DNA of 64,000 bases, taken from IMG/VR virus record IMGVR_UViG_3300045988_147571; one strand, 5' to 3'. The notes beneath the pieces were generated by a model. It searched no databases and was not told the origin of the DNA. It saw only the letters and a list, made by a program, of their open reading frames with translations. The translations under genes and the position numbers were made by a program. Source of the DNA: a virus. Positions 5,726-30,013 of this stretch are shown here, in pieces; the stretch's first letter is position 1; the number at the start of each line of letters is the position of its first letter.

Positions 5726-5911
5726 ATGAAGAAAAATTTTATACAGACTGCCGATCGAGAAACAGCGGATATCTTAAAATCTATTGGCTTTCCTCAGATC
5801 AGTGATAAAAAAGGTATCTATACATTTGCAAATTGCTCTTCTCTCTCATTTGCAAATGTAAATATAGATATAAATAAACTAACTTATACTGATATTTATT
5901 GTGCAAGTTAG
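5726..5911 (+). CDS. hypothetical small protein
   Basis: 61-aa ORF starting 4 nt after the portal stop. No recognisable motif. Confidence 0.35.
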   Translation: MKKNFIQTADRETADILKSIGFPQISDKKGIYTFANCSSLSFANVNIDINKLTYTDIYCAS

Positions 5912-5959
5912 TGCTCCTCTTCTATGAGGATAAAAATATATGATAGAAAGGAGGCTAAC

Positions 5960-7537: not shown

Positions 7538-7558
7538 GCTATCAAATAGCTCTTTTTT
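7536..7558 (+). terminator. intrinsic terminator
   Basis: 7-bp stem GAGCTAT/ATAGCTC with a 3-nt loop, followed by TTTTTT. Overlaps the stop codon. Confidence 0.6.
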
Positions 7559-7591
7559 ATTGCCTAAAAATATTTAAAGGAGGAAATAAAA

Positions 7592-8065: not shown

Positions 8066-8083
8066 TGGAAGGAGGAATACATA

Positions 8084-8544
8084 ATGAAACTTAATTTTTC
8101 TAGTAATGAAGTAAGAAACATTTTTGCAGAAAATGATTATGCAGAGTACTCCCAGCTTATGTTTGACACAGCTATGGGAGAAGAAAAAGTATCTACAAAA
8201 GATGCTAATGACAAGATCAGAGAGATCATGTTCTCCGTACTTGGTGTAGATGAAAATTGCACTAAGAAAGAGCTTAGAAAAGCTATTCGTAGACATAAAA
8301 TTGATGTATTTGAAATCATCGAGGAAACAGTAGAGAATCTGCTTGTTTCTGGTTGGGGAGAAAACCCATTCTTCAATGAATTCGTAGAGATTAAATCTAT
8401 GGCTGATGGTGATACTAATGAGTTCTATGTACCGGATGAAGTTATTCTGACAGTGTCTGAACTTGCGGGCAATCACCATGATCTGATCAGACAGCGCCTG
8501 GCAGAAGGACAGACATTCTCTGTTAAAACTTCTTGGTATGGGAT
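8084..8544 (+). CDS. major capsid protein, exon 1 (putative)
   Basis: GGAGG RBS. The ORF runs into a stop 8 nt after the predicted 5' splice site. It joins in frame to 9786..10404, giving about 359 aa. A strong terminator follows exon 2. Identity as the capsid protein is from synteny. Confidence 0.6.
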
Positions 8545-9785: not shown

Positions 9786-10404
9786 TAAAATTTACGCAGA
9801 ATATGAGCTGTTTATGGCAGGTCGTATTGACTGGGCTGGATTTGTACAGAAAATCTATGAAGCCTTTGATAAGAAAATCAACGATATGGTATATGCAGCT
9901 GTAATGGCAGCAGGTGAGAAGGTTCTCCCGTCTACACAGTTTAATAAGACAGGTACACTTTCATCAACAACAAAAGATGAGTTTATGACTCTGATTGAAG
10001 ATGTACAGATGGCTACAGGTGATGAAGTAGTTGTTATGGGTACCAAATCTGCTCTTGCAAAACTTTCTGCTATGGAAGATATCACTTGGGTATCTAATGA
10101 GATGAAAAACGAAAGACATACTACAGGTCGTTTAGGTCTGTTTGAAGGTATTCGTCTTGTTGAAATTCCTCAGAGATTTGCAAATAATGATACAACTACT
10201 AAGTTAGTAGATAATACTAAGCTTTTGATTATGCCAGTAGCTGATAATAAATTTATCAAGATCTACAATGAAGGCGACGCTCAGATTAAAGAAGTATCTG
10301 ATGGAAATACAAATATGGATAAAACTATTGAGTATGAATATCAGCTTAAAATGGGTGTAGCTACAATTATTGGTAAACGATTTGGAGTTTGGACACTCAA
10401 ATAA
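9786..10404 (+). CDS. major capsid protein, exon 2 (putative)
   Basis: The frame is open from 9769. The predicted junction reads ..TSWYG-I-KIYAEYELFMAGRIDW... The ORF-track Met at 9814 has no RBS and is probably internal. Confidence 0.6.
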
Positions 10405-10414
10405 AAAACTACTT

Positions 10415-10440
10415 AAAGAGGTGGGGGCTTCCACCTCTTT
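10415..10440 (+). terminator. intrinsic terminator after the capsid gene
   Basis: 10-bp GC-rich stem AAAGAGGTGG/CCACCTCTTT with a 6-nt loop. Confidence 0.65.
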
Positions 10441-10464
10441 AATTGATTAAAAAGGAGTAATAAT

Positions 10465-11004
10465 ATGGCAACAACAAGAAGAGCTGCAACAAAAACTGTT
10501 GCTACTACTGAAAATACTGCAAAGGAAACAGCTCCTGTAAAGACTACTAAAAAGTTTGAACAGAACGAACTTATTGAGTGCCGTTCTTTGGTACAGGGAA
10601 CATTGTTTATGCCTGGTAAACAGAGTGATATTTTATATCGTTGGGACGGTTATGGAGATATCCGTGAAGTAGAATACAGAGATTTATATTCTCTTAAATC
10701 TAGTCGGTCACCATATATTTATGATCCATGTTTCCAAATTGAAAATGATGAATTATTAGAAGATCCTAGATGGAAAGATGTAAAAGATCTCTATGATAAT
10801 CTTTATGATACTTCTGATATTAATCAATTTCTTGCTCTCTCACCAGCTCAGTTTAAGAAAGCACTTGCTGAAGTTCCTAAGGGACTTAAGACAGCAATTA
10901 AAATTGAGGTGGCAACCAGACTGGATAATGGTACATTTGATTCTATTCAGAAAGTACGTGCTGTAGATGAGATTTGTGGTACAGAGTTAGAAAAAATGAT
11001 TTAG
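10465..11004 (+). CDS. hypothetical head-module protein
   Basis: 179-aa ORF with AAGGAG RBS. Basic, Thr-rich N-terminus. No motif recognised. Confidence 0.5.
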   Translation: MATTRRAATKTVATTENTAKETAPVKTTKKFEQNELIECRSLVQGTLFMPGKQSDILYRWDGYGDIREVEYRDLYSLKSSRSPYIYDPCFQIENDELLEDPRWKDVKDLYDNLYDTSDINQFLALSPAQFKKALAEVPKGLKTAIKIEVATRLDNGTFDSIQKVRAVDEICGTELEKMI

Positions 11005-11014
11005 GAGGTATCAT

Positions 11015-11464
11015 ATGACCTCTTATGAAACAGTATTTAAACGATTTGAAAATAAAGTCGAAGACATAAAAGTATTGAAATTAGCATCTGATGACTGGAC
11101 TGAATTGTGCTTAGAATGGCTAAATAGTGCTATTGCAATGATTGAGTTGGACAAGTTAAAAATAGAGCATGATTTAACTAAAAAGAATGATGTTTTGTTT
11201 GAGTTCGAGGAAACTCTTACCAATGGAGAAATTGAAGTAATTGCTCTGTATATGGTCGTTGCATGGTATGACATTCGTTTGAACTCTTTAGAACATACTA
11301 ACATGTTTTATGGTTCAAAGGATGAAAAATGGACCAGCCAAAAGGAACATGCTAATTATATTATGAGTATTCAAAAGAAATATAAAAAGGAAGCCAGAAA
11401 ATATTTTAGGAATCACTCTTCCAGAAGTAATTCTTATCTGGATGGTGAACAAAATGAAATATAA
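11015..11464 (+). CDS. head-tail connector or adaptor (putative)
   Basis: 149-aa ORF with GGAGG RBS. Position and size fit head-completion proteins. Confidence 0.4.
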   Translation: MTSYETVFKRFENKVEDIKVLKLASDDWTELCLEWLNSAIAMIELDKLKIEHDLTKKNDVLFEFEETLTNGEIEVIALYMVVAWYDIRLNSLEHTNMFYGSKDEKWTSQKEHANYIMSIQKKYKKEARKYFRNHSSRSNSYLDGEQNEI

Positions 11465-11768
11465 ATATGGGACTTTTAATGACAATCAGTTTTCTGATTA
11501 TATAAAAATACTACATAATAAAATTCATTGGCTTTTAATATATCAAGAAAATGGCTATCCAAAATTAAGTATCTATTTTAATAGTTTACAATTATACATT
11601 GCAGGATTGGCTGAATTGATTTCATCTCCTTATATAATTGATTTAGCAAACACTATAGAATGTGCAAAAATAGAATTTGAAAGTAATGATTTTAATCATG
11701 ACAAATACAGAAAATTAATATTTGATGCACATACTATTATAGATAAGATAGGTGATAATCATGAGTGA
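11442..11768 (+). CDS. hypothetical head-tail joining protein
   Basis: 108-aa ORF that overlaps its neighbours, suggesting translational coupling. Confidence 0.4.
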   Translation: MVNKMKYKYGTFNDNQFSDYIKILHNKIHWLLIYQENGYPKLSIYFNSLQLYIAGLAELISSPYIIDLANTIECAKIEFESNDFNHDKYRKLIFDAHTIIDKIGDNHE

Positions 11769-12819
11769 TATCTTTAAAAAAAGAATGGCCTTATGCGGTA
11801 ATACAGTATCTGATAGTATTCGTATTCAATCAGATGAAATCATGCAAAAGACATTCACAAATGATCTAGGATATAGACAATGTAAGCTATATTCTAGGAC
11901 GATGGAATACTTAGAAGATGTCGAAATTAAATATCAGTATTCTCAAGTCTACACAATCAATAAAGACCAGGTTGAGTATCTGGCTCAATTCAGACCTGGC
12001 TATTTTCCTGAAAAAAAATATATGGAACCTGATGGAATTGAACGTTTTGGTTTTTATATAGAAATACCTGATAAGAATACAGGTGTACATGAAATGTGGT
12101 TAATCTTAGGAAAGAATGATAAGAACTCTTTTATAAGATATAACATTCTTAAATGTAATTGGATGTTTAAATGGGTAAAAAATAAACAGATTTATAGTTG
12201 TCTCGGTATAATAAGAAACCGCAATAACTACAACAGTGGCGTATGGAGTGATGGATTCTTTACGTCCGTAGATAATCAATCACAGTTTATTATTCCTACT
12301 ACCCCAATTACAGAAACAATTGATTATAATGATCGTTTTATGCTAAGTGACTCTATGATTAGACCTTTAGTTTTTGAAGTATCAAAACTAGAAGATACTT
12401 TCCCATGTGGAGTAACTAAAGTAACGCTTAAACAGGATCATTTCAATAAAGTTACAGATAATGTTGAATTAAAAATATGTGACTATTATGACTCTCCGGT
12501 TATTCCTCAAGAGCCAGAAATAGAGGACATTGTTTTATCATGTTCAGGTACTAATAGAGCTTTACGTGTTGGAGGCTCTAAAAGAACTATTTCAGTTGCG
12601 AGTGATATTAAAGATAAATCTGTCATTTGGTCTTATGAGTTCAATGGAAACAAATTATCTGTAGAAGAATTATCTAATGACTTTGAAATCTCTGAAGGTA
12701 AGAATACGTTAAGTATCAAAGCTTTGTTAAATTATAATAATTTAGGAAAAGTAATAAAGATTATTGCTACTCTTCCAAATAAGCAACCATCTTCTATTGA
12801 ATTGGAGGTGATGCGATGA
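11752..12819 (+). CDS. hypothetical structural protein
   Basis: 355-aa ORF. GTG at 11752 or ATG at 11761. The C-terminal part looks beta-rich and Ig-like. Overlaps its neighbours. Confidence 0.5.
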   Translation: MIIMSDIFKKRMALCGNTVSDSIRIQSDEIMQKTFTNDLGYRQCKLYSRTMEYLEDVEIKYQYSQVYTINKDQVEYLAQFRPGYFPEKKYMEPDGIERFGFYIEIPDKNTGVHEMWLILGKNDKNSFIRYNILKCNWMFKWVKNKQIYSCLGIIRNRNNYNSGVWSDGFFTSVDNQSQFIIPTTPITETIDYNDRFMLSDSMIRPLVFEVSKLEDTFPCGVTKVTLKQDHFNKVTDNVELKICDYYDSPVIPQEPEIEDIVLSCSGTNRALRVGGSKRTISVASDIKDKSVIWSYEFNGNKLSVEELSNDFEISEGKNTLSIKALLNYNNLGKVIKIIATLPNKQPSSIELEVMR

Positions 12820-13382
12820 ATCAAGAGCGTATTGATAGATTATTTTCTTGTAGAAATGAACAGGGATTTGACAGTATTTCTTATGATAAGAGAAAAATCT
12901 TAGAAGATTTATACAAAGATTCAGATATTATTGAAATCTTAAATAATAAAGAACTTCAAGCAGTTAATGCGTGTCCGGAAGATTATTATAATGTAAATAT
13001 TTATTCTTTTTTAAAGATTCCAGATGCACAAAGTAAAGTCAAAAACTTTATTTGCTTTGAAGTAAATGACACTGAAATTGTATACTCAAATAATATTATG
13101 GTTTCTAAACAAATTATTTTTAGAACTATAGCTCACCAGGATGATGTCAGTACTATTTGGGGTATTGATCGACAGGATTTACTAGCAGCTTTAGTTAAAG
13201 AAAGATTTCAATGGTCAAACATATTAGGTACGCAGTTAATAAAAACATATGATTCTGGCAAAGTGGCTGAAAATGGTTATTACTATAGGAATATGTATTT
13301 TGAACAGACTGCTCCGAATGATATTCAAAATAGGCTTAAGAGTAATCGCTTAGATAAGTTAGGTCGTGATTATTATGGATAA
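12816..13382 (+). CDS. hypothetical structural protein
   Basis: 188-aa ORF with an ATGA overlap onto the upstream gene. Confidence 0.5.
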   Translation: MNQERIDRLFSCRNEQGFDSISYDKRKILEDLYKDSDIIEILNNKELQAVNACPEDYYNVNIYSFLKIPDAQSKVKNFICFEVNDTEIVYSNNIMVSKQIIFRTIAHQDDVSTIWGIDRQDLLAALVKERFQWSNILGTQLIKTYDSGKVAENGYYYRNMYFEQTAPNDIQNRLKSNRLDKLGRDYYG

Positions 13383-17078: not shown

Positions 17079-19613
17079 ATGGCTGATTATACAATACAAG
17101 TAGGCGTAGAAGTTGAAGATAGTAAATTGGATGCGCTGGAAACACGAATTAATTCATTAAAAGATAAACATGTTAAACTCAATGTGGATTTTGGTAATAG
17201 TAAGCAGTTGGCTAGAAACGCTCAGACAGCGGTAAAAACTATTAATAAAGCTACTGTAAAAGCTGCCAAAAACAGTCCTTCAATTAAGGGGGCCAATCTT
17301 GTAGAACAAATGGTTGATCCCGAAAAAGCTTTAAAAGCAATGTCTAGTACAGTTGGCAAGCTATCTAAATATCAGGGAAAACTTGATTTAGGAGAAGTAA
17401 GACTTTCAGTTAATCAAGGGATTATGGGAGAACTAGATGGTCTTCTTAGTAAATTAAATGAAATTAAAGCAACTGCTAAGAACATGGGATCCATCAAACT
17501 TACTGTTGGTGATAATATTAAAACACAAGACGGTAAAATAGTTGTTGGATCAAATAGCAGTGCCTCTACTGGTTCTGTCAGATCATCTGGACTAACACTT
17601 AGACAAGCGCAGGCCGAAATCAAAAAAAATATGAAAACCATTGGTACTTTACAAGAACAGTATATCAATGGTCATGTTGATGAATCTACATATAGACAGT
17701 CAAAAAAAACTATAGGACAAAGAAATGCTTATTTAGCAAGAATGGTGCAAACTCAAGGTACTGCTTCTGACTGGGTTACTTCTGCTACTGATTTTAGAGA
17801 AGCTCAAGCCAAGAATCGAGCTGCCTATAGAGAGATGATGTCTAGTGCTGATGCCTATGATAAAGTAATTAGTGATTTGGGTGAAAAACAAAAAACATTT
17901 AATGAAGCTGCTCAAGTATATAATTCTAACAGTAGAAGTCCATTAAATAAGACTTTAGGACCCGGATATCAAGCAAGGCTTACAGCTTTTAATGATGTCT
18001 ATGGTCAATTAAAAGAGTCACATGATAAAATCTCCACGCTTACTGGAGATGAAAAAGATCTTGAAAAAGTACGTTTCAGCGCTCTTAAATCTGAAGCTAA
18101 TCGTCAAGCCAGACAGCTTAATAATGTGAGTCAGTTTTTCTCAAAAACTCCAAATAAATATAGTAGATCTGAATTTGTAGGTACAGACTTAGATGTGACT
18201 TCTGATAAAGTTCAGAATAAAATGTCACAAATGGTTGATAATCTTGCTAATGGCAGTAGATATACTAAAGAATTTAATGCAGCACAAGGAAAAATGTATG
18301 CTACAATAGACAGAGGCTCTGGTGTATTTGAAAAATATCAGCTTGCATACAAAAATGGGCCAGGTAATATCGATCAGTCTCTTAGCAAAGTCACTCAGAG
18401 CGTAAAACCTCTTTCTAGTTACATTTCTGAAATGGGACAAAAGTTCCGTAGTCTTAGCCAGTATCTTATCAGTAATTTCGGATTCCAAGCTTTAACAACA
18501 GGTATCAGATCAGGTGTTACATCTATAAAAGAATTAGATTCAGCAATGACTGAATTAAAGAAAACCTCTGAAGGTACAAAACAGGAATATAGAGACTTTA
18601 CTACTCAAGCTAGGAGTGACGCTAAAGATATCGGTAGTACGACTACTCAGATTACTAATAGTGCTGCTGATTTCTCACGTCTTGACTACACACTTGGCGA
18701 ATCTCAAACTCTAGCTAAAAATACTGGTATATTAAAAAATGTATCAGAATTTGAGTCTATAGATGATGCAACAACTGCTATGATTTCTATGATGAAAGCA
18801 TATGATGTAAAAGTTGATGATTCTATGGATCTCATTGATAAAATGAATCTTATTGGTAACAACTATGCAATTTCTACAGATGGAATTGCTACCGCTTTAC
18901 AAGATTCAGGTTCAGCATTGGTAGCAGCGGGAAACGACTTTGACAAGTCAGTTGCTCTTGTGACGGCTGCTAATAGTGTAGTACAGGACCCATCAAAGGT
19001 AGGCGCTGGTCTTAGAACAATTGCTTTACGACTTAGAGGCACTTCTGCTGAAGAATTATCTTCTATGGGTGAAGATACAGAAGGTCTTGTAGAGACCACT
19101 TCTAAACTTAATTCAAATATTAAATCTCTTACTGCCGTTAACGGTAAGGCTGGAGTTTCTATTCTTGATATGAATGGAAACTATAGAGATACTTATGATA
19201 TTTTAAAAGATATCTCTCAGGTTTGGGATGATATTGGTAAGCAAGATTTGGCAGATGGTCAGAATAGACAGGCTGCTCTGCTTGAAATGATGGCAGGAAA
19301 AAATAGAAGTAATATTCTTGCATCCATATTACAGCATCCTGAATTACTTACAGATGTTTATAATGATTCCGCAAATAATTATCAAAATTCAGCTCAGAAC
19401 GAGCTTAATACATACCTTGATTCTATCGAAGCAAAAACAACTAAAATTAAAGAATCTTGGTCACAGTTATGGCAATCAGAAGGTAGTACTAATACTTTTA
19501 AAGGATTGCTTGATATTGGCAACGGCGCTGTAGGACTCTTAAATGGTTTAGGACTCAATAAAACCTTAGCCGGAGTCGGCGGTATGCTTGTTAGCCATGC
19601 TATGAACTGGGGT
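17079..19613 (+). CDS. tail tape measure protein, exon 1
   Basis: Contains a TP901-type tape measure core (..DATTAMISMMKAYDV..NNYAISTDGIATALQDSGSALVAAGNDFDKSVALVTAANSVVQDPSKVGAGLRTIALRLRG..). GAGGTGAG RBS. Exon 1 ends on a codon boundary (..HAMNWG) at the predicted 5' splice site. Confidence 0.85.
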
Positions 19614-20033
19614 GGGACAAATTATCAGTTGGTCCTTTAGAAAACGCCCCATGTAACCTGGTGGTGACACGGAACGATCTCATATGAGAAAGGGGTTACT
19701 AAGCAAACAACCGAAACTGTCTTTATTCGAAGGAATAGAGAAATGCTTTTAATTTGGCATTCAGGGTGAACCGAAGTATATACTACTCCCCTATTACAGT
19801 AATGTAATAGGTATAGTAACAACGTATATATATGGGTAATCTGCAGCGAAGCTTCTTTATTTTATAGAGAAGAACGTTCATCGACTATAATGGGAACTTG
19901 GTCTCCGGATCAAGAAGGAATAGTCAGGACTGTTAGGCAGCTTACGCCGAATAAATTAAAGGGTAAATACATCTTACTCTTGTAAGCAATCTTACCTTAT
20001 GTGCAAAGGTGATGTAAGCACAAAAGCAAGAGA

Positions 20034-20144
20034 TTACTCTCCTGCTTCTTTATGTTTAATATAATATGTACAATCTTCATTTTCAAAGTAAGGACATTCC
20101 TCTTCCTTACATTCTTTGTAGAGAGGACATTCTAATATTTCCAT
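20034..20144 (-). CDS. 36-aa four-cysteine peptide (MEILECPLYKECKEEECPYFENEDCTYYIKHKEAGE)
   Basis: Hand-translated; below the ORF-track size cutoff. GGAGG lies about 10 nt upstream of the ATG on the minus strand. Last gene of the antisense cassette. Confidence 0.4.
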   Translation of the reverse strand: MEILECPLYKECKEEECPYFENEDCTYYIKHKEAGE

Positions 20145-20219
20145 AATCTTTAAACCTCCATAGTATAGTTTTGTTGACTGTCTAAAAGAAATTATTGATT
20201 AATTTTCAGAATATAACCT

Positions 20220-20771
20220 TTAATGATTTAAAAAACATTGATCTAACTCTAATAATATTTTTTCCAAATCATCTATATTGATAATAAGAAAAAATTTTCC
20301 TTTATGATCTTCTCTAATATCTTCGTCTTCAAATTGTATAGCTTTTATTTCAGTACTTGCGTTATGAGTTAATGGATGAATCATTAAACGATCATGGCAG
20401 ACAGCATTCCTTAAATGTTTAATTACATTTCTTTCACAATTATTTTCTTTGTATGTGTTTTTATAGATCTCATTATACGTCTTATTAGTGAGTCTTTTTA
20501 ATGTAGGCACATTCTGAAAATTATCTTTTCTATTAGATAGATAATTAAAATATTTCTCTTTTGGAAAAACAAGTAACCCCAAAAAAGAATTTATTAATTG
20601 AGTGACCTCATAACATTTTTGATACTCAAATTCATTGGCAAACATAATTCTTTTTAAACAAGAAATCTCTTTATTTTTATTATGTCCAGCTAATTTTTGA
20701 ATCATGAAATAATTCATTTGTGTCCTACAAATAAACTCTTTAACATAATCATCATCTTTAAAATTACTCAT
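20220..20771 (-). CDS. HEPN-like protein (R-x4-H motif)
   Basis: ..NVIKHLRNAVCHDRLMIHP.. matches the HEPN R-x4-6-H RNase signature (RN...H) in a predicted helical 183-aa protein. GGTGAT RBS. The start lies 6 nt after the stop of the upstream zinc-ribbon gene. Confidence 0.5.
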   Translation of the reverse strand: MSNFKDDDYVKEFICRTQMNYFMIQKLAGHNKNKEISCLKRIMFANEFEYQKCYEVTQLINSFLGLLVFPKEKYFNYLSNRKDNFQNVPTLKRLTNKTYNEIYKNTYKENNCERNVIKHLRNAVCHDRLMIHPLTHNASTEIKAIQFEDEDIREDHKGKFFLIINIDDLEKILLELDQCFLNH

Positions 20772-20777
20772 AAACTA

Positions 20778-21281
20778 TCACCAAGTATATCCACAAGAGT
20801 TACACTTAAAGCTCTTGTTAATCTTCTTACTGAATAATCCCAATATTCCTACTGATACCATACGTTCTCCTGTAGAGATTTTACGAATATTGGTGGAACC
20901 ACATGTTGGACACTTAGGCCCAGTAGAGAATTTCTGAGCATTCTGTTTGGCATACCACTGGTCTGTTATCCTGTTTTGCTCTTCTATTCCTTCAGGAGAT
21001 TCACTATATTTTCTTTTTTTAACGGCAGAGTAATCTACTTCATTGTCTAACTTTCCATAAAAATATTTTTGCCTAAATATCTCAGATGATTCCAAATGAC
21101 TAGGACAATGACCATCATGAGTTTTCTCATATTCTTTTGATAGCTCCATATATGCTGTAGACCAATCAATGCCAGTACCTATATAAGTTCCAGTTTCACA
21201 GGTATAACATTTATCTCCTATTTTATAAGAAGAAGATGTACTAGTCTTTCCACATTTATTACAAAATAATAATTCTTCCAT
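20778..21281 (-). CDS. double zinc-ribbon protein
   Basis: N-terminal CNKC..x14..CYTC and C-terminal CPTC..x28..CNSC. 167 aa. First gene of the antisense cassette. Confidence 0.6.
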   Translation of the reverse strand: MEELLFCNKCGKTSTSSSYKIGDKCYTCETGTYIGTGIDWSTAYMELSKEYEKTHDGHCPSHLESSEIFRQKYFYGKLDNEVDYSAVKKRKYSESPEGIEEQNRITDQWYAKQNAQKFSTGPKCPTCGSTNIRKISTGERMVSVGILGLFSKKINKSFKCNSCGYTW

Positions 21282-21322
21282 ATTGTTCCTTTTTATTATA
21301 TATAGTAATTAAGATTAGCTAT

Positions 21323-21331
21323 ATTATATCA
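21323..21331 (-). promoter_or_regulatory. extended -10 promoter element (TGATATAAT) for the antisense cassette
   Basis: The reverse complement of 21323-21331 reads TGATATAAT. It lies about 40 nt upstream of the zinc-ribbon ATG and 10-18 nt inside the intron 3' end. The -35 region would fall in tape measure exon 2. Confidence 0.45.
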
Positions 21332-21340
21332 CACAGTTTG

Positions 21341-24300
21341 GTTTTCGCCAAGAATGAAGATGGAGAAATTTTACCGCAATCACGAAGAGCTCAACGTAAT
21401 GCTGCTATAGCGAAAGGTTATGTAGAAGCCAATAAAAATTGGCAAGCATATTCAGATGATTTAGAAGTTCTTAAAGAGCTTAACAAGCAACTTGATAATA
21501 ATGGTCAGGCCATTACAGACAACGAGCAACGTATGGCCAAAGCAAATGAAGTAACGAAGAATGCTAGTCAAAGAGCTAAAGATTATGGTAAACAAATGGC
21601 CACTAATGCTAAGACTCTCACTGATTTTAAAAGAGAAAATGAGGTAGAGAAACCTGATCAACAGAAACAAGGGAAATGGTCCGATGGTCTAAAAAGTATG
21701 GCATCTGCAGGTCTCTCAATGATTGGCAATGCTTTTATTTCCGCTGGTGTTGGAATGCTTGTGCAAGGAGCTTTCTCATTGCTTGGTAAAGGCATTGACG
21801 CTTTCGTTCATAAAAATGAGAACTTAATTGCTAAAGGTCAAGAAGCAAAAGAATCCATTCAATCCCAAACTAAAGCCTATGAAGACCAGAAAGCATCTCT
21901 TGGAGAACTTACTTCCAAATACACAGAATTATCTAAAGGCGTAAAAATATCTGGTAATTCTATTAAAAATATTAGTCTTACAGATGATGAATATAAGGAT
22001 TTCTTAAATACAAGTAATCAGATTGCTGCCGCAGCACCTAGTCTCACACGTTCATGGGACTCCCAGGGTAATGCCATTCTTAATGCTGGGACTAATGCTG
22101 AGGATTTAAACACTCAGATTAATGATTACTTGAAGTTACAGAGGAACCTTACTTACTATGATACTAAGAAAAATATTAGTAATCAGTATGAGGGATATGA
22201 AACTGCTTTAGGTACTAACGAGCGTCAAAAAAATGATTACAAAGATAAATATGATGCAGCAAAATTTAAAGTTAATTCTATGCAGAATTTTTCGAATATG
22301 CTTAAAAAGCAAAAAAAAGGAGAAGATACCTTTAGCTACACATTGGATCAAGCTGCATATGATGCACTCGGCAATACCTTTGGAAAAGCAATAAAAAACT
22401 ATACACAATCTGCTGATGGTCAAACAATAACTTTGGAATTTGATGGCAAACAATTAGATTTTCTTAACAACGAAGCAGCCAACATATTAAGTTCTGATAG
22501 TAGTGAACTTCAAGAAGCTCATACCAATTTAGTTAATACACAAGAATCTATAGATGCAGCAAAAAGAGAAATGGTTTCTTCTATCAAGTCAATGGCAAGC
22601 ACTATTGATTCTTTTGATAGCTGGGACGATCAAGATAAAGCATCAGAATTTCAATCACAGTTGAATAGTATGCTTAATTCTACGGACAATACCAGATTGC
22701 TTAATGATTTTAAAGAATCCGGTAAAGATATGGACACATGGCTTCGCAATAACATTGTGAACCCTATGTCAACTGCAAATTCAGATGAACAAAAACTTTG
22801 GGAACAAGCATTTGAAATGGAGCCTAAAGATAAAGAAACAGTTCAAGAATTTGCCGCTCGTAGAAATAATCTTTTCGATCAGATTGCTGCTATTTCTGAC
22901 AGTGATTTTTGGGATAGAGATACACTTGGAGAAGCTTTTGGCTTTAACCATACAGAATATGATGATAATGGAAAAGCTGAATTTGTATGGGAAAATCAAG
23001 ATAAGTTAAATCGAATACAAGACGCATTGAAAAATGCAAAAGCCAGTAAAACAAAAGGCGATGCTTCTGATGTAAGAACAGATCTTAATAATATGACCCC
23101 TGATGAGTTGGACATAGCTGTACAAGTTATTACTGACTCAGATGCTTTAACTTCTATAGATTCTTTTTATGAGGCATTCGAAAAGGCTAAACAAGCAGCT
23201 AAAAATATGAGTGATCAGGCAGCCGTTTCTTTAGATTCAATGGAAACTAAAGTATCAACTGCTAAGTCTACTCTTTCTTCTATGGGAACTATTCTTACAG
23301 AGACTACTTCTGCAGGCGGAGTTTCTAAAGACAATGTTAAGATTCTTTCTACTGCTTTCAAAAATGTGAAAGACCCTCGTGGCATTGAGCAAAATGTTAA
23401 TGATTTATTCACCACTACTTCTGATGGTATCAAACTAAACATAGATGCTTTGAAAACCTTTACGGAATATCAGACTGAAGCCACTGATGGAGATTTCGAA
23501 AAGGGTATTAAGTTACAGACTAAAGCTATTGCCGAGCAAGCAGAAGAAACAGATAAAGCTTGGAAAGCTATTGCTAAAGCCGATGACAAGGAAGCAGCTA
23601 GAGCAACTTATAACGCAGAAAAAGATAAATTAAAAGATGCTAGAAACGAATATTTATCTTATATGCAATCTCAGTCTGAATGGCAAGCAACTAAGAAACA
23701 GCAACAGGAACTTCTTTCTTATTATTCTCAGTGGCAACGTGCCCAGAGTACGGAGAATGCCGGAGATAAATATAATAACATTGTTGCCGGACTAAAAAAT
23801 GCTAAAGATGCATATGATAAAGGTCTTGTAGGTACAGATGATTTTAAATCATTTGCTGCTCTTATTTCTCCTACAGGTTCAGATGATAGAGCAAACTTTG
23901 CAGAGAATTATGGTAAAGCTGTAAGATACCTCACAGAAGATAAGACAGGTGTTAATAATTTCTTAGCTGATCTTAAATCTAAGGGTATGGCATCTTATGA
24001 TGATGCAAGTAAAAGATGGTCATTTGACATAGATGATATGAGTAAAGCCGCTCGATCAATGGGAATCAGCAAAGAATTCATGAGTGCTAACTTCGGTCGT
24101 CTTCGTGATTATGGCATTGATAATAATTTTATATCATCTACAGAAGAAGGTATAGATAGGGTTCAGGAACTTACTTCTGCTCTTTCAGACGAACAAAAAC
24201 GACTTGAAGAATTAAAGAATACGGATAGCACCAATACTACTGCTATTACTGCTTCTGAGGACAAAGTTAATAAATATAAACAGGATTTAAAAGAAACCTA

Positions 24301-27300
24301 TGATAATATGGGTGACTACTCTGAAGATGCTGCACAGACTGCTGTTGATAATTTTAATTCGGCAGCAATGGGTGTACAATCATATCAGAATGCAATAGAA
24401 AATGTTAAAAAGAATGAGAATCTGACAGAAGCTCAAAGAACTTCTGCAATTAATCAATTAATAGCTAAACAGGAAGAATTAGCTGCCACTTACGGTACTA
24501 CTGTTAAAGAATTATTAGGAGCAGATGTATCTTCATTAATGGATGGCATTATAACAGATTCTGCTTCTGTTACTACTGCTCTTGATGGTATCAATAAAGC
24601 ATATGAAGAACAGAACACAGATGTTACTTCTTTAGTTGACACTCTTGGAAAATATACTTCTGAACAGTTAGAAGGTATAGATTTCAATGATGGTAAGTGG
24701 GATACTGAATTAGGCGATGCTGAAAAAGCTGTTGAGTCTTTATGTGAGAAGCTTGGTTTAACAAAAGACCAAGCTCGTTCTGTTATTGAGGCTTTAAAAG
24801 AAGCTGGTAAATTAAAAGATTCTGAGGAAAGTAGTGATTCCTCTAAAGAAACTACTAAGGGGTCTTGGGAGAAACCACAGACTGCTGAACAGATGGGATT
24901 CGGTGATGATCCTGACAGAGCTGCTGAATATACACATTCATTGGAAGCTCTTACTGCTGCCCATAAAGAAAATGATGCCGCTACTGAAAAGTCATTTGAA
25001 ACCCTTTCTAAATATAATCGTACACAATTAGAGGGTATCAAATTAAATGATGGTGCTTATAATGTTGAGGGTATAGAACAGGCTGAAGATGCCATACAAC
25101 AGTTAGCAGATAAGACTCAGTTGTCTAAAGATCAGATTCTTACTGCTCTTGAAGGTCTTGGTGTTTTGAAAGTTAATGCTCCTACTATGGATGCGACAAA
25201 AGGTTTGGAAGATTTAGTTTCTGAGGCTAAAGATGCACAGGACGAATTGTCTGATCTTACTGGTAAAACATACACATTTGATTTTGATACTACTGATTTA
25301 GATACTGCTCATAAACAGGTAGCTGACCTGCAGGAAGAAGTAAATAAATATAGAGATCGTGATGGTAAATACCATCCAGAGATTACTGGCGGAGAACAGG
25401 TGCAATCAATGTACAAAGCCGCTATTGCTCAAGAACAGAATGCTGAATATAGTTCTTCTGCTATTGGACAGTCTAGTTTATCATCAGATGTCGTACAAGC
25501 TGCTCAAGATTTTATGACAGCTAAGAATGAAATGGATCAGCAAACTCAACTTTATCAAAATGGAATGGATAATACTCTTGATAAAGCTACAGAGAAAGCT
25601 AACGCCGCATTTGAATCTTTACAACAAGCTCAAACTGATTCGGGTATTGAACTTGTAGATACTAATAATATTCAAAAAGCTGAAAATCAGTTACTTTCTA
25701 TGACTGATAAAGATTTACAGGCTAAAATAGATGTTCAAGCAGATACAAGCGATGCCGAAGCAGAATTAGATGTCCTAGAAGAATTGGACGGATCTACACT
25801 TAAGCTTACTTGCGAATTATCGGATGAAGATAGTTTTGAACGAGCTAAATCTGCTATTGAATCTATGCCAGCTAACACCGTTACAACCGTAGATATGGAA
25901 GTTAATGGTGAAGAGGATGTAGAGAAAGCAACAGAGCTTATTGAATCGGCACCTACTGATGGTACTGAGCTAGTTGTTAACTGTCATGTTGATAATGCTG
26001 AAGACTTAGATAAAATAAATGAAGCTGCTGCAACTGCCAAAGCAAACGGAGCAAATATTAAAATAAACGCTACTGTTGGTGAAGTGGATGCTTCAACTGC
26101 TACGAGTACAGAACCTGTTAAAATGACAGGTGAAATAGAAAGTGCAGAATATACTGGCGCTCCAGTTGAAATAGAAGCTACAGCAAATATTACTAATGTG
26201 ACTAATGGTGATTCCGCAGAAGTTAATCCTACAATAAATACGGATGAAGTGGATAACTATACTGTCGATGACAAAGAAGTAAATGTTGATTTTAAAAAGA
26301 ATTCAGATGAAGTTGATAATTATCAACCGGACGATAAAGATGCAACTGCCTATTATGGAGTAGATTCTTCAGCACCAGATAGTTATCAGCCGAGTGATAA
26401 AGATGCATATATCACGTATCATATACGTGTTGAAGGAGGAATAGCTGCTGGCATTCCAAATAGTCCTTCTGGAGGATCTGGTGGTTCTTTTGCTACAGGT
26501 ACAATGGCATCAGTTGCTCGTGCAGATGGTACAATGTACAATGCACCTTGGAACTATCAACTTCTCTCTTCTGCTTTTGCAAAAGGAGATGCTGCTTTAC
26601 ATAAAGACGAAAAAGCGTTAGTAAACGAAGTCGGGACCGAATCTATTGTGCGTGACGGTACTTGGTTTACGATTCCTGGCGGAGCACATCTTGAGAATCT
26701 TAAAAAAGGAGATATTATTTTCTCTGCTCAACAGACTAAAGATTTACTTGAACATGGCGCAACACCGGGACATGCTAGAACTTATGCACAAGGCACAGCC
26801 CCAGGATTAAGTATCTCTCCTGCTTTCTCATCTGGTTCTAGTTCTTCTACTAACACAGAATTAGATAACAAAATCAAAGAAGTTAGTACTCAGGCAAAAG
26901 ACTGGATAGACGTAGCTCTTGATCGTTTAGAGAGAATCGTTGAAAAATACAAAGACACTGCTGAAAGTGACTATTCCAACTATAGAGCTTCTATTAAGGC
27001 TTACAATTCAGCACTTAAAAATCTTAAAAACCAATTAAAGACTCAAAAAGATTCCAGAGCAAAGTATGTAACTAAAGCAGACGAAGTCGCTTCTGCTGTC
27101 GGATTGTCTGACGATTTAAAAAAGAAGGTTCAAAATGGTACTATCAATATAGAGAACCTGTCAGAAGATGATAAAAAACGTGTTGATGCATATCAGGAAT
27201 GGTATGAAAAAATCTTAGACTGTGACAAAGCTATACGTCAGCTCACTATTTCGCAGAAAGATTTAGCTAAAGCTAAAGTTGATCGGGTTACTGAAGCTTA

Positions 27301-30013
27301 TGACACTGTTATAGGCAAACGTGAAAGTAAAGCTGAATATTACAAAGCAAAACAGGAATTAAGAATCACTCAAGGTTACAATCAGAAACCTGGATCTATT
27401 TATGAGAAGTATATAAAAAATGAACTTTCTTATACTAATAAACAGAAGAAACTTACTGATAAGGAAATAAAAACCTATAAAGGTAAGATGAAAGAATATC
27501 TTGCAGAAAATGGTCATAAAACTGTTGATCCTGAATATCAGAAAATGAAGAAACAGCTTTATGATCTGGAAACCTCAGCTGTTAAATTAGAGAATGAAGC
27601 CGCACAGTTAAGACAGGCTCTACAAGATAATCGTGAACAGATTAAACAATGGGCGGTTGACCGTTGGGAAAGAGCTGGTAGTAAACAAGATGCAGTAATT
27701 AATTATAAGACTGTTTCTGATGATCCAAACTATCAGATCAAGGAAAAGGATTACACTGAGAGAATCAAAACAAATAATCGTCAGATTATAGCTTTACAGA
27801 AGTTGAGAGCAGAAAAAGCTGAGTACTATGACAGTTATTTTAAGAGCGGAAACAACGAAGAAGCTCAGAAATATCTTGAAGCTATTGCTCAGATTGACGA
27901 ACAGATTCTAAAACTTGGAGCTAGTACAGAAGAGTTAAAGAATCAAATCATGGAACTTCGTTGGAAGCCATTTGAAGATATTCAAGATGACCTTTCTAAT
28001 GTAATCAGTGAGTATCAAACCATGCAGAAGCTTCTTGGTGATACAGAAAGTTTCTACAATGACGATGGATCTTTCACTGAAAATGGTTTGACAAATATCC
28101 TTCTTTTACAGGAATCTATTGATGTTACTAAGCAGAAAATAGCTAACTATAGAGAAGCTTTAGACAAACTAGATGAACAGTATAAGAATGGTTGTTATAG
28201 TCAGGAAGAATATACTGAGAAATCTAAAGAGCTATTAAACGGATTACAGCAAGAGTCTGCTGCCCTCTCTGATTTGCAACAGAATATGCTTACAATGTAT
28301 GAGACTCAGGTTAAAACTGAGAATGATCTCTTACAGAAAAATATTGATAAGCGTTTGGAAGCTCTTGATGCTAAAGAGAAGTATTATGAGTATGATAAGA
28401 CTTTGAAAAAGAAGTCTAAAGATATTAATACTCTGAAGGCACAGATAGCAGCCCTTGAAGGAACAAGCAATGCTGCTGCCAAAGCCCGTTTAGAAAAATT
28501 AAAGGCTGAATTAGCAGAATCTGAAGAGGATATGCAAGATACTGTTCATAATCATGAAACTGAAATGAAGAAAACAGGTTTTGAGAATCTTCAATCAGAT
28601 GCTGAGAAAGCTCTTGATAATACCTTAGATGCACTGAAAAAGAATACCAATTTTCAGCAAGCAGTTATTGGTAATATGTTATCCAATGTAACTGCTAATT
28701 ATGATAGTACCTATAGTCATCTGCATGATGTTATGGATCAATATGGAGTACAGGTGTCTACTACATTTGATAAGATGATTACTAAGTCTGCTAATTTTAA
28801 TACGTCCTTAGTAGCACAGACTAAAGCTATGCAAGATGTTATTAATATGGCTACTAAACTTCCTGCCAATCTTGGCGGGACTGCTACTGACATTGTAAAT
28901 AATACTGCTAAAGTTAATGGTACTTCAACCGGAGCCGGTAATGTAACGCCGGGAAAAGTAAATGATACGACTTACTCTCTGAAGTTAAATGCATCAGAAA
29001 TTTATCTAACATACAGTCATTTGAAATATTCATTGAAAGCTACATGGTCTCCAAGTAAACCGGAACACTCTGATATTGAATGGTCGAGTACAGATAAATC
29101 AGTTGCAAAGGTCTCAACTTCTGGTGTTGTTACAGGTGTAGCTGCGCCACTTAGTAAACTTGGATTAATGTCAAGAGATGAATCTTTGACTAGAAAATGT
29201 AAGATTATTGCAAATGGTGGTCCGGGTCTTGCAAAAGCTGAGTGTACGGTACATATTATGCCAGATGAACATTATAATGCCATTAAGCAATATGCTGATA
29301 AAGTTGGCATCGATACTTCTAAAGAAGGCAATAATCTTAGAGATGCTATGGAATACGCTTATAAAAATGGTGCATTCCGAAGCAATCAGTCAAGTACCGC
29401 TGTTGAAGGATTCCAGAAAGCTTATCTAAAAGACTGGTTTAATGCTCTTCCAGACCGTCCTAACGGTGCAACGGATGTTCCTAGTGGAGTTAGTCAGCTA
29501 GCTGGATATTTCTATTCCAAAGGTAAACAAGTCACACGTAATGATATGCAGAAACTTGCTGATATCCTTCAGATTAAAACTCCGGGAGTTGGAAGTTATG
29601 ATACCTGGGGTGGCACACTTAAAAATAAGATTCTGAAAGCATACAAAGCTTATGGTTATGCTACTGGTGGCGTAATCAATAGACTTGTTCCTGCCAATAT
29701 GGAAACACTCTTAGGTAAAGCAATCATCTCCAATGGAGATCAAGGTTTTATTGGCGCTAAAGTTGGAGAAACCGTAATGACTGAAGAGTTCACTCGTTTG
29801 CTCAAACCTTCTATTGCTGCAATGAGCGACTTTACCAATATGTTTAACCCAACTACTCCTATTGCTACCACAAATAATGATTATTCTATCAACAATGAGG
29901 TAAACATTAATGTAGCAAGTATGAGCAGTGATTTAGACATCCAAGATGTCGCCAATAAAGTCTCTACAATTATTAATAAGAATATGACTAGAGACTGGAG
30001 AAAACTTAGATGA
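21341..30013 (+). CDS. tail tape measure protein, exon 2
   Basis: 2890 codons of mostly coiled-coil, Ala/Lys/Glu/Gln-rich sequence. An internal tape-measure C-terminus-like motif is present (ALVNEVGTESIV..IPGGAHL). A Big_2-like Ig domain lies near the C-terminus (..KATWSPSKPEHSDIEWSSTDKSVAKVSTSGVVTGV..). No RBS precedes the ORF-track TTG start at 21338. Confidence 0.8.
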   Translation, partial: VFAKNEDGEILPQSRRAQRNAAIAKGYVEANKNWQAYSDDLEVLKELNKQLDNNGQAITDNEQRMAKANEVTKNASQRAKDYGKQMATNAKTLTDFKRENEVEKPDQQKQGKWSDGLKSMASAGLSMIGNAFISAGVGMLVQGAFSLLGKGIDAFVHKNENLIAKGQEAKESIQSQTKAYEDQKASLGELTSKYTELSKGVKISGNSIKNISLTDDEYKDFLNTSNQIAAAAPSLTRSWDSQGNAILNAGTNAEDLNTQINDYLKLQRNLTYYDTKKNISNQYEGYETALGTNERQKNDYKDKYDAAKFKVNSMQNFSNMLKKQKKGEDTFSYTLDQAAYDALGNTFGKAIKNYTQSADGQTITLEFDGKQLDFLNNEAANILSSDSSELQEAHTNLVNTQESIDAAKREMVSSIKSMASTIDSFDSWDDQDKASEFQSQLNSMLNSTDNTRLLNDFKESGKDMDTWLRNNIVNPMSTANSDEQKLWEQAFEMEPKDKETVQEFAARRNNLFDQIAAISDSDFWDRDTLGEAFGFNHTEYDDNGKAEFVWENQDKLNRIQDALKNAKASKTKGDASDVRTDLNNMTPDELDIAVQVITDSDALTSIDSFYEAFEKAKQAAKNMSDQAAVSLDSMETKVSTAKSTLSSMGTILTETTSAGGVSKDNVKILSTAFKNVKDPRGIEQNVNDLFTTTSDGIKLNIDALKTFTEYQTEATDGDFEKGIKLQTKAIAEQAEETDKAWKAIAKADDKEAARATYNAEKDKLKDARNEYLSYMQSQSEWQATKKQQQELLSYYSQWQRAQSTENAGDKYNNIVAGLKNAKDAYDKGLVGTDDFKSFAALISPTGSDDRANFAENYGKAVRYLTEDKTGVNNFLADLKSKGMASYDDASKRWSFDIDDMSKAARSMGISKEFMSANFGRLRDYGIDNNFISSTEEGIDRVQELTSALSDEQKRLEELKNTDSTNTTAITASEDKVNKYKQDLKETYDNMGDYSEDAAQTAVDNFNSAAMGVQSYQNAIENVKKNENLTEAQRTSAINQLIAKQEELAATYGTTVKELLGADVSSLMDGIITDSASVTTALDGINKAYEEQNTDVTSLVDTLGKYTSEQLEGIDFNDGKWDTELGDAEKAVESLCEKLGLTKDQARSVIEALKEAGKLKDSEESSDSSKETTKGSWEKPQTAEQMGFGDDPDRAAEYTHSLEALTAAHKENDAATEKSFETLSKYNRTQLEGIKLNDGAYNVEGIEQAEDAIQQLADKTQLSKDQILTALEGLGVLKVNAPTMDATKGLEDLVSEAKDAQDELSDLTGKTYTFDFDTTDLDTAHKQVADLQEEVNKYRDRDGKYHPEITGGEQVQSMYKAAIAQEQNAEYSSSAIGQSSLSSDVVQAAQDFMTAKNEMDQQTQLYQNGMDNTLDKATEKANAAFESLQQAQTDSGIELVDTNNIQKAENQLLSMTDKDLQAKIDVQADTSDAEAELDVLEELDGSTLKLTCELSDEDSFERAKSAIESMPANTVTTVDMEVNGEEDVEKATELIESAPTDGTELVVNCHVDNAEDLDKINEAAATAKANGANIKINATVGEVDASTATSTEPVKMTGEIESAEYTGAPVEIEATANITNVTNGDSAEVNPTINTDEVDNYTVDDKEVNVDFKKNSDEVDNYQPDDKDATAYYGVDSSAPDSYQPSDKDAYITYHIRVEGGIAAGIPNSPSGGSGGSFATGTMASVARADGTMYNAPWNYQLLSSAFAKGDAALHKDEKALVNEVGTESIVRDGTWFTIPGGAHLENLKKGDIIFSAQQTKDLLEHGATPGHARTYAQGTAPGLSISPAFSSGSSSSTNTELDNKIKEVSTQAKDWIDVALDRLERIVEKYKDTAESDYSNYRASIKAYNSALKNLKNQLKTQKDSRAKYVTKADEVASAVGLSDDLKKKVQNGTINIENLSEDDKKRVDAYQEWYEKILDCDKAIRQLTISQKDLAKAKVDRVTEAYDTVIGKRESKAEYYKAKQELRITQGYNQKPGSIYEKYIKNELSYTNKQKKLTDKEIKTYKGKMKEYLAENGHKTVDPEYQKMKKQLYDLETSAVKLENEAAQLRQALQDNREQIKQWAVDRWERAGSKQDAVINYKTVSDDPNYQIKEKDYTERIKTNNRQIIALQKLRAEKAEYYDSYFKSGNNEEAQKYLEAIAQIDEQILKLGASTEELKNQIMELRWKPFEDIQDDLSNVISEYQTMQKLLGDTESFYNDDGSFTENGLTNILLLQESIDVTKQKIANYREALDKLDEQYKNGCYSQEEYTEKSKELLNGLQQESAALSDLQQNMLTMYETQVKTENDLLQKNIDKRLEALDAKEKYYEYDKTLKKKSKDINTLKAQIAALEGTSNAAAKARLEKLKAELAESEEDMQDTVHNHETEMKKTGFENLQSDAEKALDNTLDALKKNTNFQQAVIGNMLSNVTANYDSTYSHLHDVMDQYGVQVSTTFDKMITKSANFNTSLVAQTKAMQDVINMATKLPANLGGTATDIVNNTAKVNGTSTGAGNVTPGKVNDTTYSLKLNASEIYLTYSHLKYSLKATWSPSKPEHSDIEWSSTDKSVAKVSTSGVVTGVAAPLSKLGLMSRDESLTRKCKIIANGGPGLAKAECTVHIMPDEHYNAIKQYADKVGIDTSKEGNNLRDAMEYAYKNGAFRSNQSSTAVEGFQKAYLKDWFNALPDRPNGATDVPSGVSQLAGYFYSKGKQVTRNDMQKLADILQIKTPGVGSYDTWGGTLKNKILKAYKAYGYATGGVINRLVPANMETLLGKAIISNGDQGFIGAKVGETVMTEEFTRLLKPSIAAMSDFTNMFNPTTPIATTNNDYSINNEVNINVASMSSDLDIQDVANKVSTIINKNMTRDWRKLR

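Follow-up and report, generated by a model that had tools for sequence, protein, structure and literature searches.

The tape measure protein (TMP) gene of an uncultured gut phage of clostridial bacteria, which has a Gram-positive host and is represented here by a 64,000-nucleotide stretch of IMG/VR record IMGVR_UViG_3300045988_147571 (the whole of which is referred to as the window), is split by a 1,727-nt segment at 19614..21340 on the plus strand, and sequence comparison strongly supports the view that this segment is a group I intron that would be removed from the late transcript by self-splicing. The intron carries on its opposite strand an island of three small genes. Comparison with relatives gives equally strong support to the view that this island is built as a conserved frame, in which a gene for a double zinc-ribbon protein comes first and a gene for a 36-aa four-cysteine peptide (pep36) comes last, around an exchangeable middle slot, and that in the window phage the slot holds a gene of the HEPN family which was acquired by recombination. 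The functional reading favoured here, which is put at an even chance of being right, is that the island is moron-like and acts in conflict, with the intron as its harmless site of insertion and the HEPN protein as one of its exchangeable effectors.

The window is a late structural module in which nearly all large open reading frames (ORFs) lie on the plus strand, and the module ends with a GH25+CHAP+SH3 endolysin (60822..62504). Two of the plus-strand ORFs, 17079..19640 (853 aa) and 21338..30013 (2,891 aa), both encode TMP, and the homology that they carry is colinear across the gap between them: exon 1 (17079..19613) matches the Pfam family PhageMin_Tail with 62.6 bits and phrog_4211 with E=3e-63 over profile positions 172-931, and exon 2 (21341..30013) continues the same PHROG profile over positions 962-1479. 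The first ORF runs past the splice site into the intron as far as a TAG at 19638..19640, and the second, whose frame is open only from 21314, has neither a start codon context nor a ribosome-binding site of its own. The gap of about 1.7 kb contains three minus-strand ORFs, which make up the sole substantial minus-strand coding stretch in the late operon.

The splice sites can be read from the sequence as pairings of an internal guide, GAAAAC-GCCCCA (19640..19651, plus strand), with the ends of both exons. The second part of the guide, GCCCCA (19646..19651), pairs in P1 with the UGGGGU (19608..19613) that ends exon 1 (...AAC TGG GGT), U19613 forming the U.G pair of P1 with G19646, and the first part, GAAAAC (19640..19645), pairs in P10 with the GUUUUC (21341..21346) that begins exon 2. 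Just before this GUUUUC stands G21340, the terminal G of the intron, which is invariant in all relatives. The 5' splice site is also marked by one relative (L056) in which the exon has diverged up to ...AACTGGGGT and the sequence thereafter is near-identical. At the nucleotide level the predicted ligated-exon junction joins AACTGGGGU to GUUUUCGCC (read form AACTGGGGT joined to GTTTTCGCC), and it is in frame, with ...AMNWG running on into VFAKNEDGEIL, so that splicing would yield a tape measure protein of ~3,736 aa. In the more divergent loci L065/L066, whose core is 76% identical to that of the window, the guide reads GAAAAU-GCCCCA and exon 2 starts with AUUUUU, a compensatory change from G-C to A-U in P10; the P1 extension GGGAC/GUCCU has become AGGAU/AUCCU, which is again compensatory, and the junction (...LFDWG into IFAKNEDGFLP) is also in frame.

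The catalytic core, P3-P9 (19713..19947, plus strand), is matched by the Rfam model RF00028 (model positions 1-253, 25.4 bits, E=0.0011), with P7 formed by GACUAU (19883..19888) and AUAGUC (19920..19925), and the core of L065 gives an equivalent match of 17.4 bits. Applied to eight core sequences, RNAalifold recovered P1, P2, P2.1, the P4-P6 region, P7 and P8. In this structure, which was derived from the same alignment on which it was tested, 20 of the 121 pairs had changed on both sides, compared with 0-3 in slid controls and with a value reached by none of 500 shuffles, and 99% of cells were paired, compared with 37-45% in the slid controls. A candidate for an extra stem was given up, and is not claimed, the only element common to the sequences being a 6-bp AUCUUA/UAAGAU complement. 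An allele lacking the intron was sought in three collections: a degenerate junction pattern had no match in IMG/VR and, in JGI metagenome contigs, only three chance matches that lacked TMP homology, and a junction-spanning peptide compared with 5.8 billion proteins found none that extends across both exons, the best candidate (P0306) being exon 2 with intron read-through. As far as these sequence collections reach, the intron appears to be fixed in the clade.

An earlier sequence-only reading of the window had described the three minus-strand ORFs as tightly packed in the position where a homing endonuclease gene would be expected. All three are present with the sizes and coordinates given below, including their cysteine motifs, the IKHLRNAVCHDRL motif and the GGAGG, and they go beyond what chance would produce, given a Pfam match above the cut-off, conservation in about 25 contigs and purifying selection on all three genes, as measured by the ratio of non-synonymous to synonymous change (pN/pS) and, for pep36, by codon changes. 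The promoter-proximal and conserved zinc-ribbon gene (20778..21281, minus strand) encodes a 167-aa protein with the CxxC pairs C7/C10, C25/C28, C124/C127 and C160/C163, all eight cysteines being invariant in 19 homologues. It consists of an N-domain (residues 1-~115) and a C-terminal ribbon module (~115-167) of about 50 residues, with the pattern PKCPxCGSxN..K..G/hydrophobic-rich hairpin..K..CxxCG. None of the 329 close homologues of the protein is named, and the ribbon module alone matches 2,468 representatives (50% identity), on many different N-termini. Relative to its relatives the gene has a pN/pS of 0.13-0.21, and searches of the PDB and BFVD with a model of the protein yielded nothing beyond generic zinc ribbons and a single Siphoviridae protein from the gut that is itself uncharacterised.

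The pep36 gene (20034..20144, minus strand) forms the distal, conserved end of the island and has its own GGAGG at 20159..20155, 10 nt upstream of its ATG. It occurs in all relatives, its four cysteines are invariant even in the divergent L065 copy, and in close relatives its first 28 codons have 6-8 synonymous and 0 non-synonymous changes, a pattern by which the ORF is judged to be coding. The peptide has no family match in Pfam, PHROG, NCBIfam or PADLOC, and PHROGs and NCBIfam leave the island proteins unassigned. A comparison of the three window ORFs with the homing families (LAGLIDADG, GIY-YIG, HNH, His-Cys box and PD-(D/E)xK) gave no significant match, the only nuclease-like matches being weak ones to HNH PHROGs (E=0.38-0.69) on the zinc ribbon.

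The middle gene, read from 20771 to 20220 on the minus strand, starts 6 nt past the stop codon of the zinc-ribbon gene and encodes a 183-aa protein that carries IKHLRNAVCHDRL (...HLRNAVCHDRL...). A Pfam search of 20220..20771, directed at the suggestion that this is a HEPN protein, matches PF18736, the pEK499_p136 type, with 56.9 bits (cut-off 26.6; E=2.6e-15) over positions 5-144 of the 152 in the profile, and the predicted RNase motif RNxxxH is present as R121-N122-A-V-C-H126. In a comparison of 16 sequences, with identities as low as 29%, N122 and H126 never vary and R121 hardly does, homologues over this range also keep EVTQLINSxLGLLVxP, and all 26 of the homologues with a precomputed Pfam match carry PF18736. 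The pN/pS of the gene relative to relatives is 0.05-0.33, and the AlphaFold2 model of the protein is a confident one, with a predicted local distance difference test score (pLDDT) of 88.7 and a predicted template modelling score (pTM) of 0.84. On its profile match and motif the protein is a predicted RNase of the HEPN family. No MNT or NTP-transferase gene, such as a HEPN-MNT type II/VII toxin-antitoxin pair would have, was found beside it, its neighbours being the zinc-ribbon protein and the Cys4 peptide. Many HEPN families are toxins of toxin-antitoxin (TA) systems. Distant members of the present family are found inside a type I restriction-modification (R-M) operon beside SIR2, and beside a WYL regulator and a resolvase; the family has been listed among the HEPN families predicted to be active, with links to R-M, Pgl and ART/Macro genes (Anantharaman et al. 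2013).

Signals that could serve the expression of the island lie at both of its ends. Upstream of the zinc-ribbon gene there is a sigma-70-type promoter-like site (21323..21351, minus strand) made up of TTGGCG (21351..21346), a 17-nt spacer and a TATAAT with a TG extension, which ranks best in the region (10/12 matches, with TG). Its extended -10 element is TGATATAAT (21331..21323, minus strand), which falls within the intron at 10-18 nt from the 3' splice site, while the -35 box belongs to exon 2, just as the sequence-only reading had held, and this placement is confirmed at a splice site (between 21340 and 21341) that was derived independently of the promoter. Every relative retains the TATAAT, even L065 with its identity of 76% (TGCTATAAT), and the TGn extension is kept in all of them except L047/L057. 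Downstream, a terminator-like hairpin of 12 bp with a U-rich tail (20022..20049, minus strand) overlaps the pep36 stop codon, and the fold of 20070..19975 on the minus strand has an energy of -24.3 kcal/mol (z=-3.1), with 0 of 200 shuffles as stable. The GC skew changes sign across the island.

The organization of the island becomes clear when the window is compared with its relatives. About 25 distinct viral contigs, which are large (85-160 kb, one 250 kb), share the intron, the identity of its core being 96% or higher, together with the frame that runs from the zinc-ribbon gene to pep36. In type A, to which the window and 7-8 others belong, the middle slot holds the HEPN gene; in type B, the majority, it holds a gene for a 61-aa single-pass membrane protein; type C has an extra 305-aa ORF; and in type D (L025 and L068) the HEPN gene is fused to the remnant of an alternative zinc-ribbon tail and is followed by the membrane protein gene, a preserved recombination scar which shows that the HEPN gene arrived together with an "A-tail" ribbon segment. 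The slot of L047/L057 contains a 225-aa HExxH protein, and the island of L065 contains a 273-aa HEPN protein, an HExxH protein, a 76-aa double ribbon and two ORFs on the TMP strand. Sense-strand genes also occur in the intron: several loci have an additional 154-aa ORF on the TMP strand (7551..8015 in L012, 8858..9322 in L011 and 7351..7815 in L020), and in L065 an overlapping 77-aa and 196-aa pair at 8352..9168 resembles a two-gene module, all of these lacking a family match. Ten other cargo ORFs of the relatives include no homing endonuclease and for the most part belong to no family, and PADLOC gave a single weak match among ten cargo proteins (PDC-S64, E=0.0029, on the 76-aa zinc ribbon). 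Searches of GenBank phages, both for near matches and at the protein level, found none for the region, the TMP junction or the HEPN protein; the zinc-ribbon protein matches one unannotated metagenomic fragment there, and no cultured relative of the phage came to light in these searches.

Composition is consistent with exchange at this position. The segment from the HEPN gene to pep36 has a GC content of about 24-29%, compared with about 35% for the TMP and zinc-ribbon genes; for the HEPN gene taken separately the value is about 24-26%. A sharp mosaic boundary passes through the island when L009-L030 are compared with 19614..21900 of the window: exon 1, the core and pep36 are 96-100% identical, and the zinc-ribbon gene is 31-94% identical and the first 500 residues of exon 2 are 38-90% identical. 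The zinc-ribbon N-domain in particular falls to 31% identity while the neighbouring core stays at 96% or more. The idea that the A-tail of the zinc-ribbon protein is a dedicated partner of HEPN was considered and rejected, because L065 pairs its HEPN protein with a B-like tail and because A-tails are also found on many unrelated proteins. These comparisons bear out the earlier suggestion that the intron acts as a landing pad, different genes occupying the slot in different relatives, and they overturn the idea of a fixed operon of three genes, since the zinc-ribbon gene and pep36 are constant and the HEPN gene, with its low GC and the scar in L025/L068, is interchangeable. A search among relatives for the same intron with a conventional endonuclease, which had also been proposed, came out empty: no homing endonuclease is present in any of the approximately 25 variants.

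A similar arrangement is found well outside this clade. A scan of bacterial genomes identified 44 loci, nearly all of them in Lachnospiraceae, Oscillospiraceae or other Clostridia. At 31 of the 44, one to four genes with the zinc-ribbon module lie antisense to TMP-like sequence that is 22-35% identical to the window TMP, and at 11 or more of those 31 the antisense genes are flanked by exon-1-like and exon-2-like parts. Distant relatives have 2-4 tandem copies of the module with different N-termini. A profile of the intron core, which was run with nhmmer because the whole-core alignment was too large to calibrate a covariance model, found related cores at the expected place and on the expected strand in L063/64, L094, L081, L079, L075 and L086, and in the alignment of related cores the P5 hairpin has been repeatedly resubstituted in a compensatory manner. 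Rfam gave no group I match for L063 or L106 taken alone, and when 60 kb of divergent loci were submitted together the weak TMP intron was lost to its filters. Two related loci with the same layout, L106 and L110, are prophages in complete bacterial chromosomes, L110 being that of Lachnospiraceae bacterium CE91-St56; L100, of Clostridium sp. chh4-2, is a further related prophage in a cultured strain. L106, in the complete genome of the cultured type strain [Clostridium] asparagiforme DSM 15981, has two antisense islands, its TMP pieces (3029..7642 and 8875..10383, minus strand) being separated and preceded by antisense zinc-ribbon-module genes (7464..13313); the core profile, like Rfam, detects no group I core in it, so that an intron is not claimed for every locus. 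Judged by these sequence comparisons, the arrangement is old and widespread.

Other introns are present in the same phages. A second group I intron in the window, at 8536..8909 (71.3 bits, above the Rfam threshold), is followed by a sense GIY-YIG endonuclease gene (8980..9762), and it is this position, which an endonuclease gene takes in the second intron, that the antisense cassette occupies in the TMP intron, in agreement with what the sequence-only reading had proposed. The second intron splits a structural gene whose 5' part (8084..8554) matches phrog_4088 at positions 14-135 of 332 and whose 3' exon is probably 9814..10404. A minus-strand 235-aa ORF at 7988..8695 was considered as a second antisense gene and set aside: it has no family match, is of low complexity, overlaps the second intron and plus-strand genes with PHROG matches, and is most likely spurious. 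In L056 a further bona fide group I intron lies in TMP exon 1 (2863..3220, 61.9 bits), and a gap of about 1.7 kb inside TMP exon 1 is also seen in L008, L010, L014, L017 and L027, so the TMP gene of the clade can carry at least two introns.

The favoured reading, that of a moron-like conflict island, can be set out as follows. Insertion into the TMP gene would be free of cost to TMP because the intron is spliced out, and it is proposed that, as a cost-free site, the position became a hot spot for accessory genes. The island would be transcribed independently of the late operon and in the opposite direction, and would be on while late transcription is off, that is, in the prophage state or in early infection; strong transcription of the TMP gene would then damp it through converging transcription and antisense pairing. 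Its products would act in conflict between phages or between phage and host, the HEPN protein as an RNase effector of the abortive-infection or exclusion type, and the zinc-ribbon protein and pep36 as constant partners that might serve as regulator, sensor or restraint. The features by which the island resembles a moron are its conserved promoter-like site, its z=-3.1 hairpin, its variable content and its GC of 24-29% compared with about 35%, all of them properties read from sequence. A role in conflict is supported by the cellular HEPN relatives in an R-M operon, by the links of the family to defence, and by the diversification and tandem copies of the zinc-ribbon genes.

A number of observations weigh against this reading or against one of its parts. 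As regards the intron, the RF00028 match is full-length and yet below the gathering score (25.4 compared with 50), and most of the covariation stems from a single divide, with the window type on one side and the L065 type on the other, which makes it essentially a comparison of two lineages. As regards expression, the AT-rich stretch contains 11 promoter-like sites compared with 10.6 in its shuffles, which is chance level, so that the promoter call rests on the quality of the site and the conservation of its TATAAT, and the conservation of the TATAAT region could itself reflect constraint by the intron's 3' end; a consensus terminator scan did not call the hairpin, so that the terminator would be non-canonical. 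As regards the effector, a Foldseek search of the PDB with the HEPN model had a best E of 0.83 and returned no HEPN entry, and a profile search of PDB sequences with the HEPN protein gave nothing relevant. The earlier HEPN call thus stands as to family and motif and finds no counterpart at the level of fold, and because there is no fold match the assignment rests on profile and motif; PF18736 may be a family with no solved member. PADLOC (PADLOC-DB v2) had no match for the three island proteins. As regards lifestyle and partnership, the window holds only the late module and the endolysin, with no lysogeny gene seen in it, and the zinc-ribbon gene and pep36 are always kept with the intron, which could mean that they serve it.

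The same genes can be read as a toxin-antitoxin or addiction module, in which a HEPN toxin would be restrained by the zinc-ribbon protein, by pep36 or by the complementary intron or pre-mRNA, and in which the module would stabilise the prophage or the intron-bearing allele and would not exclude other phages. Such a reading, which is considered unlikely, draws on the established fact that many HEPN families are TA toxins (Anantharaman et al. 2013), on the 6 nt between the zinc-ribbon stop and the HEPN start, which suggest coupled translation, on the constant association in the window clade of the A-tail zinc-ribbon variant with HEPN, and on the position of the entire island antisense to a transcribed intron. 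Several observations count against it: most relatives have the zinc-ribbon gene and pep36 but no HEPN gene, so that neither of the two can be a dedicated antitoxin, the HEPN gene of L065 adjoins a B-like tail, many unrelated proteins carry an A-tail module, the distant relatives of the HEPN protein lack a zinc-ribbon partner, and no MNT or other known HEPN antitoxin was found.

If the conflict lay instead between the phage and its own host during lytic growth, the island would hold host-takeover or counter-defence genes rather than defence genes of a lysogen, for example an early RNase directed at host or competitor RNA, or zinc-ribbon proteins that block host defences. The large size of the contigs and the lack of a visible lysogeny gene in the window are in keeping with this, early expression would be in line with an independent promoter that points away from the late genes, and the rapid divergence of the zinc-ribbon N-domain would be expected of an arms race, whichever way it is directed. 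The prophage status of L106 and L110, which share the layout, speaks against it, as do the membership of cellular HEPN-family genes in defence islands and the failure of any anti-defence family to match, and on balance this alternative is held to be doubtful.

The topology of the locus also admits a closer coupling of the intron with its cargo than the moron-like reading assumes. The TMP pre-mRNA and the excised intron are, by sequence, perfectly complementary to the island mRNA, and the intron and its cargo could form one regulatory unit in which late transcription acts as an antisense antitoxin or switch that silences the HEPN RNase and the other slot genes. Shut-off would then coincide with the need of the phage for its own RNA to remain intact, and in the prophage or early in infection the island would be free to act on incoming phages; the probability assigned to such a switch is small. 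The recurrence of antisense zinc-ribbon genes in TMP gaps of clostridial phages may also point to an old functional tie to TMP, such as the exclusion of superinfecting DNA delivery. Delivery of superinfecting DNA depends on the tape measure protein.

It is improbable that the conserved genes work for the intron, with the zinc-ribbon protein, pep36 or both as a maturase-like splicing cofactor or an unconventional mobility factor and HEPN as a passenger. Zinc ribbons are well established as frequent nucleic acid binders, every relative that has the intron also has the zinc-ribbon gene and pep36, no intron-less allele was found in three large collections, and in distant phages too a related intron core has genes with the zinc-ribbon module next to it. 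The genes are antisense to the intron, however, and so are not produced from the pre-mRNA; the N-domain falls to 31% identity beside a core that stays at 96% or more, which is the opposite of the expectation for a co-adapted RNA cofactor; distant loci carry 2-4 copies in tandem that differ in their N-termini; neither a nuclease nor a maturase domain was found; and L106 has the same gene layout with no detectable group I core. The most improbable alternative is that no splicing takes place and TMP is made as two separate polypeptides, the antisense genes lying in an intergenic gap with a dead intron remnant. In its favour are an Rfam score that falls short of the gathering threshold, the lack of an intron-less homologue to confirm the junction, and L106, which has the layout with no detectable intron. 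Against it, exon 2 is preceded by neither a ribosome-binding site nor a start codon context, the guide pairs with both exon ends through compensatory changes with both junctions in frame, the core is conserved at 96% or more where exon 2 has diverged to about 38%, and 20 base pairs have been kept through two-sided changes.

Several other features of the window deserve brief mention. A 1,021-aa plus-strand ORF (1101..4166), in a large early-module protein, has a LAGLIDADG_3 domain at residues 303-375 and may be an intein or an endonuclease fusion. Two large late proteins (53158..55902 and 56208..58616) carry the ALK/LTK glycine-rich domain PF12810 with 509.9 and 326.1 bits respectively, a domain known from animal receptor kinases, and are presumably tail-fibre parts; a 444-aa radical SAM / 4Fe-4S protein (59387..60721) is encoded between the tail-fibre genes and the endolysin. 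A 112-aa minus-strand ORF (49033..49371), which lies in a 466-nt gap between plus-strand tail genes and has no family match, may be another antisense accessory gene of the late operon.

The significance of the arrangement lies in the use of an intron as a cost-free insertion site inside an essential structural gene, for a fast-changing island on the opposite strand, one gene of which in the present case encodes a predicted RNase of a defence-associated family. The arrangement is recurrent, being apparently fixed in a clade of uncultured gut phages and echoed in prophages of Lachnospiraceae and other Clostridia, cultured strains among them, and it offers a new place to look for phage-borne conflict genes as well as a natural example of antisense transcription having to coexist with RNA splicing. 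It also draws attention to two uncharacterised and strongly conserved families, the zinc-ribbon module of about 50 residues (over 2,400 representatives at 50% identity) and pep36.

Group I introns of phages are commonly regarded as selfish, with a homing endonuclease as their sole cargo, the conventional phage example being the T4 td intron with I-TevI in a peripheral loop. The TMP intron is laid out in the same way as a conventional phage intron such as the one at 8536..8909 with its GIY-YIG gene, in that the core comes first and the coding insert lies in the 3' peripheral region, and it differs in that the insert is on the opposite strand, contains no homing nuclease and varies in content between close relatives. 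The closest precedents as to location are the group I introns TMP-IVS1-3 in the TMP genes of Bacillus cereus-group prophages (Tourasse and Kolsto 2008, PMC2504315), which likewise interrupt the TMP gene of a Firmicutes siphophage or prophage and have P1/P10 guides adapted to their sites. Some of these introns have no complete endonuclease gene and are inherited passively with the phage, and they are found with or without an endonuclease gene and with no other cargo (PMC2504315), in contrast to the antisense three-gene island and variable slot of the window.

As to strand, the capsid intron of mycobacteriophage LittleE has a bottom-strand LAGLIDADG ORF (PMC3706429), and nuclear rDNA L2066 introns are reported to have antisense endonuclease genes (PMC9548176). 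In both of these, as in the window, a gene opposite to the intron strand needs expression signals of its own, but the ORFs are homing endonucleases for mobility, whereas those of the window encode a zinc-ribbon protein, a HEPN protein and a micro-peptide. As to cargo, the giant mitochondrial ND5-717 group I intron is reported to house ordinary mitochondrial genes (PMC6545197), so that its peripheral region, like that of the TMP intron, holds non-endonuclease genes; ND5-717 is organellar with housekeeping genes, while the window island is phage-borne, antisense, variable and of a proposed conflict type. The sequence-only claim that no comparable group I intron had been described was too broad in view of these cases (PMC2504315, PMC3706429, PMC9548176 and PMC6545197), and what is left of it is narrower: in open full text, which does not extend to subscription journals, no report was found of a phage intron that carries a HEPN gene or a variable antisense island of genes other than endonucleases. 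The finding is a combination of known kinds, a TMP group I intron and moron-like cargo, and is not categorically new.

PrrC/RloC-like HEPN RNases are embedded in restriction-modification loci. The window protein matches the pEK499_p136 family (PF18736) and has its RNxxxH motif, and cellular relatives of that family lie in type I R-M operons, as PrrC does; unlike these R-M-embedded genes, the window gene is phage-borne and intronic, stands beside a zinc-ribbon gene with no R-M partner, and has an RNase activity that is predicted. Phage morons, such as lambda bor and lom, are independently transcribed accessory genes inside late operons, and the island resembles them in its own promoter-like and terminator-like signals, its location in a late structural operon, its atypical composition, its variable presence and its possible expression in the prophage. 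Known morons sit between genes, whereas the island of the window sits inside a gene, where the intron would make it harmless.

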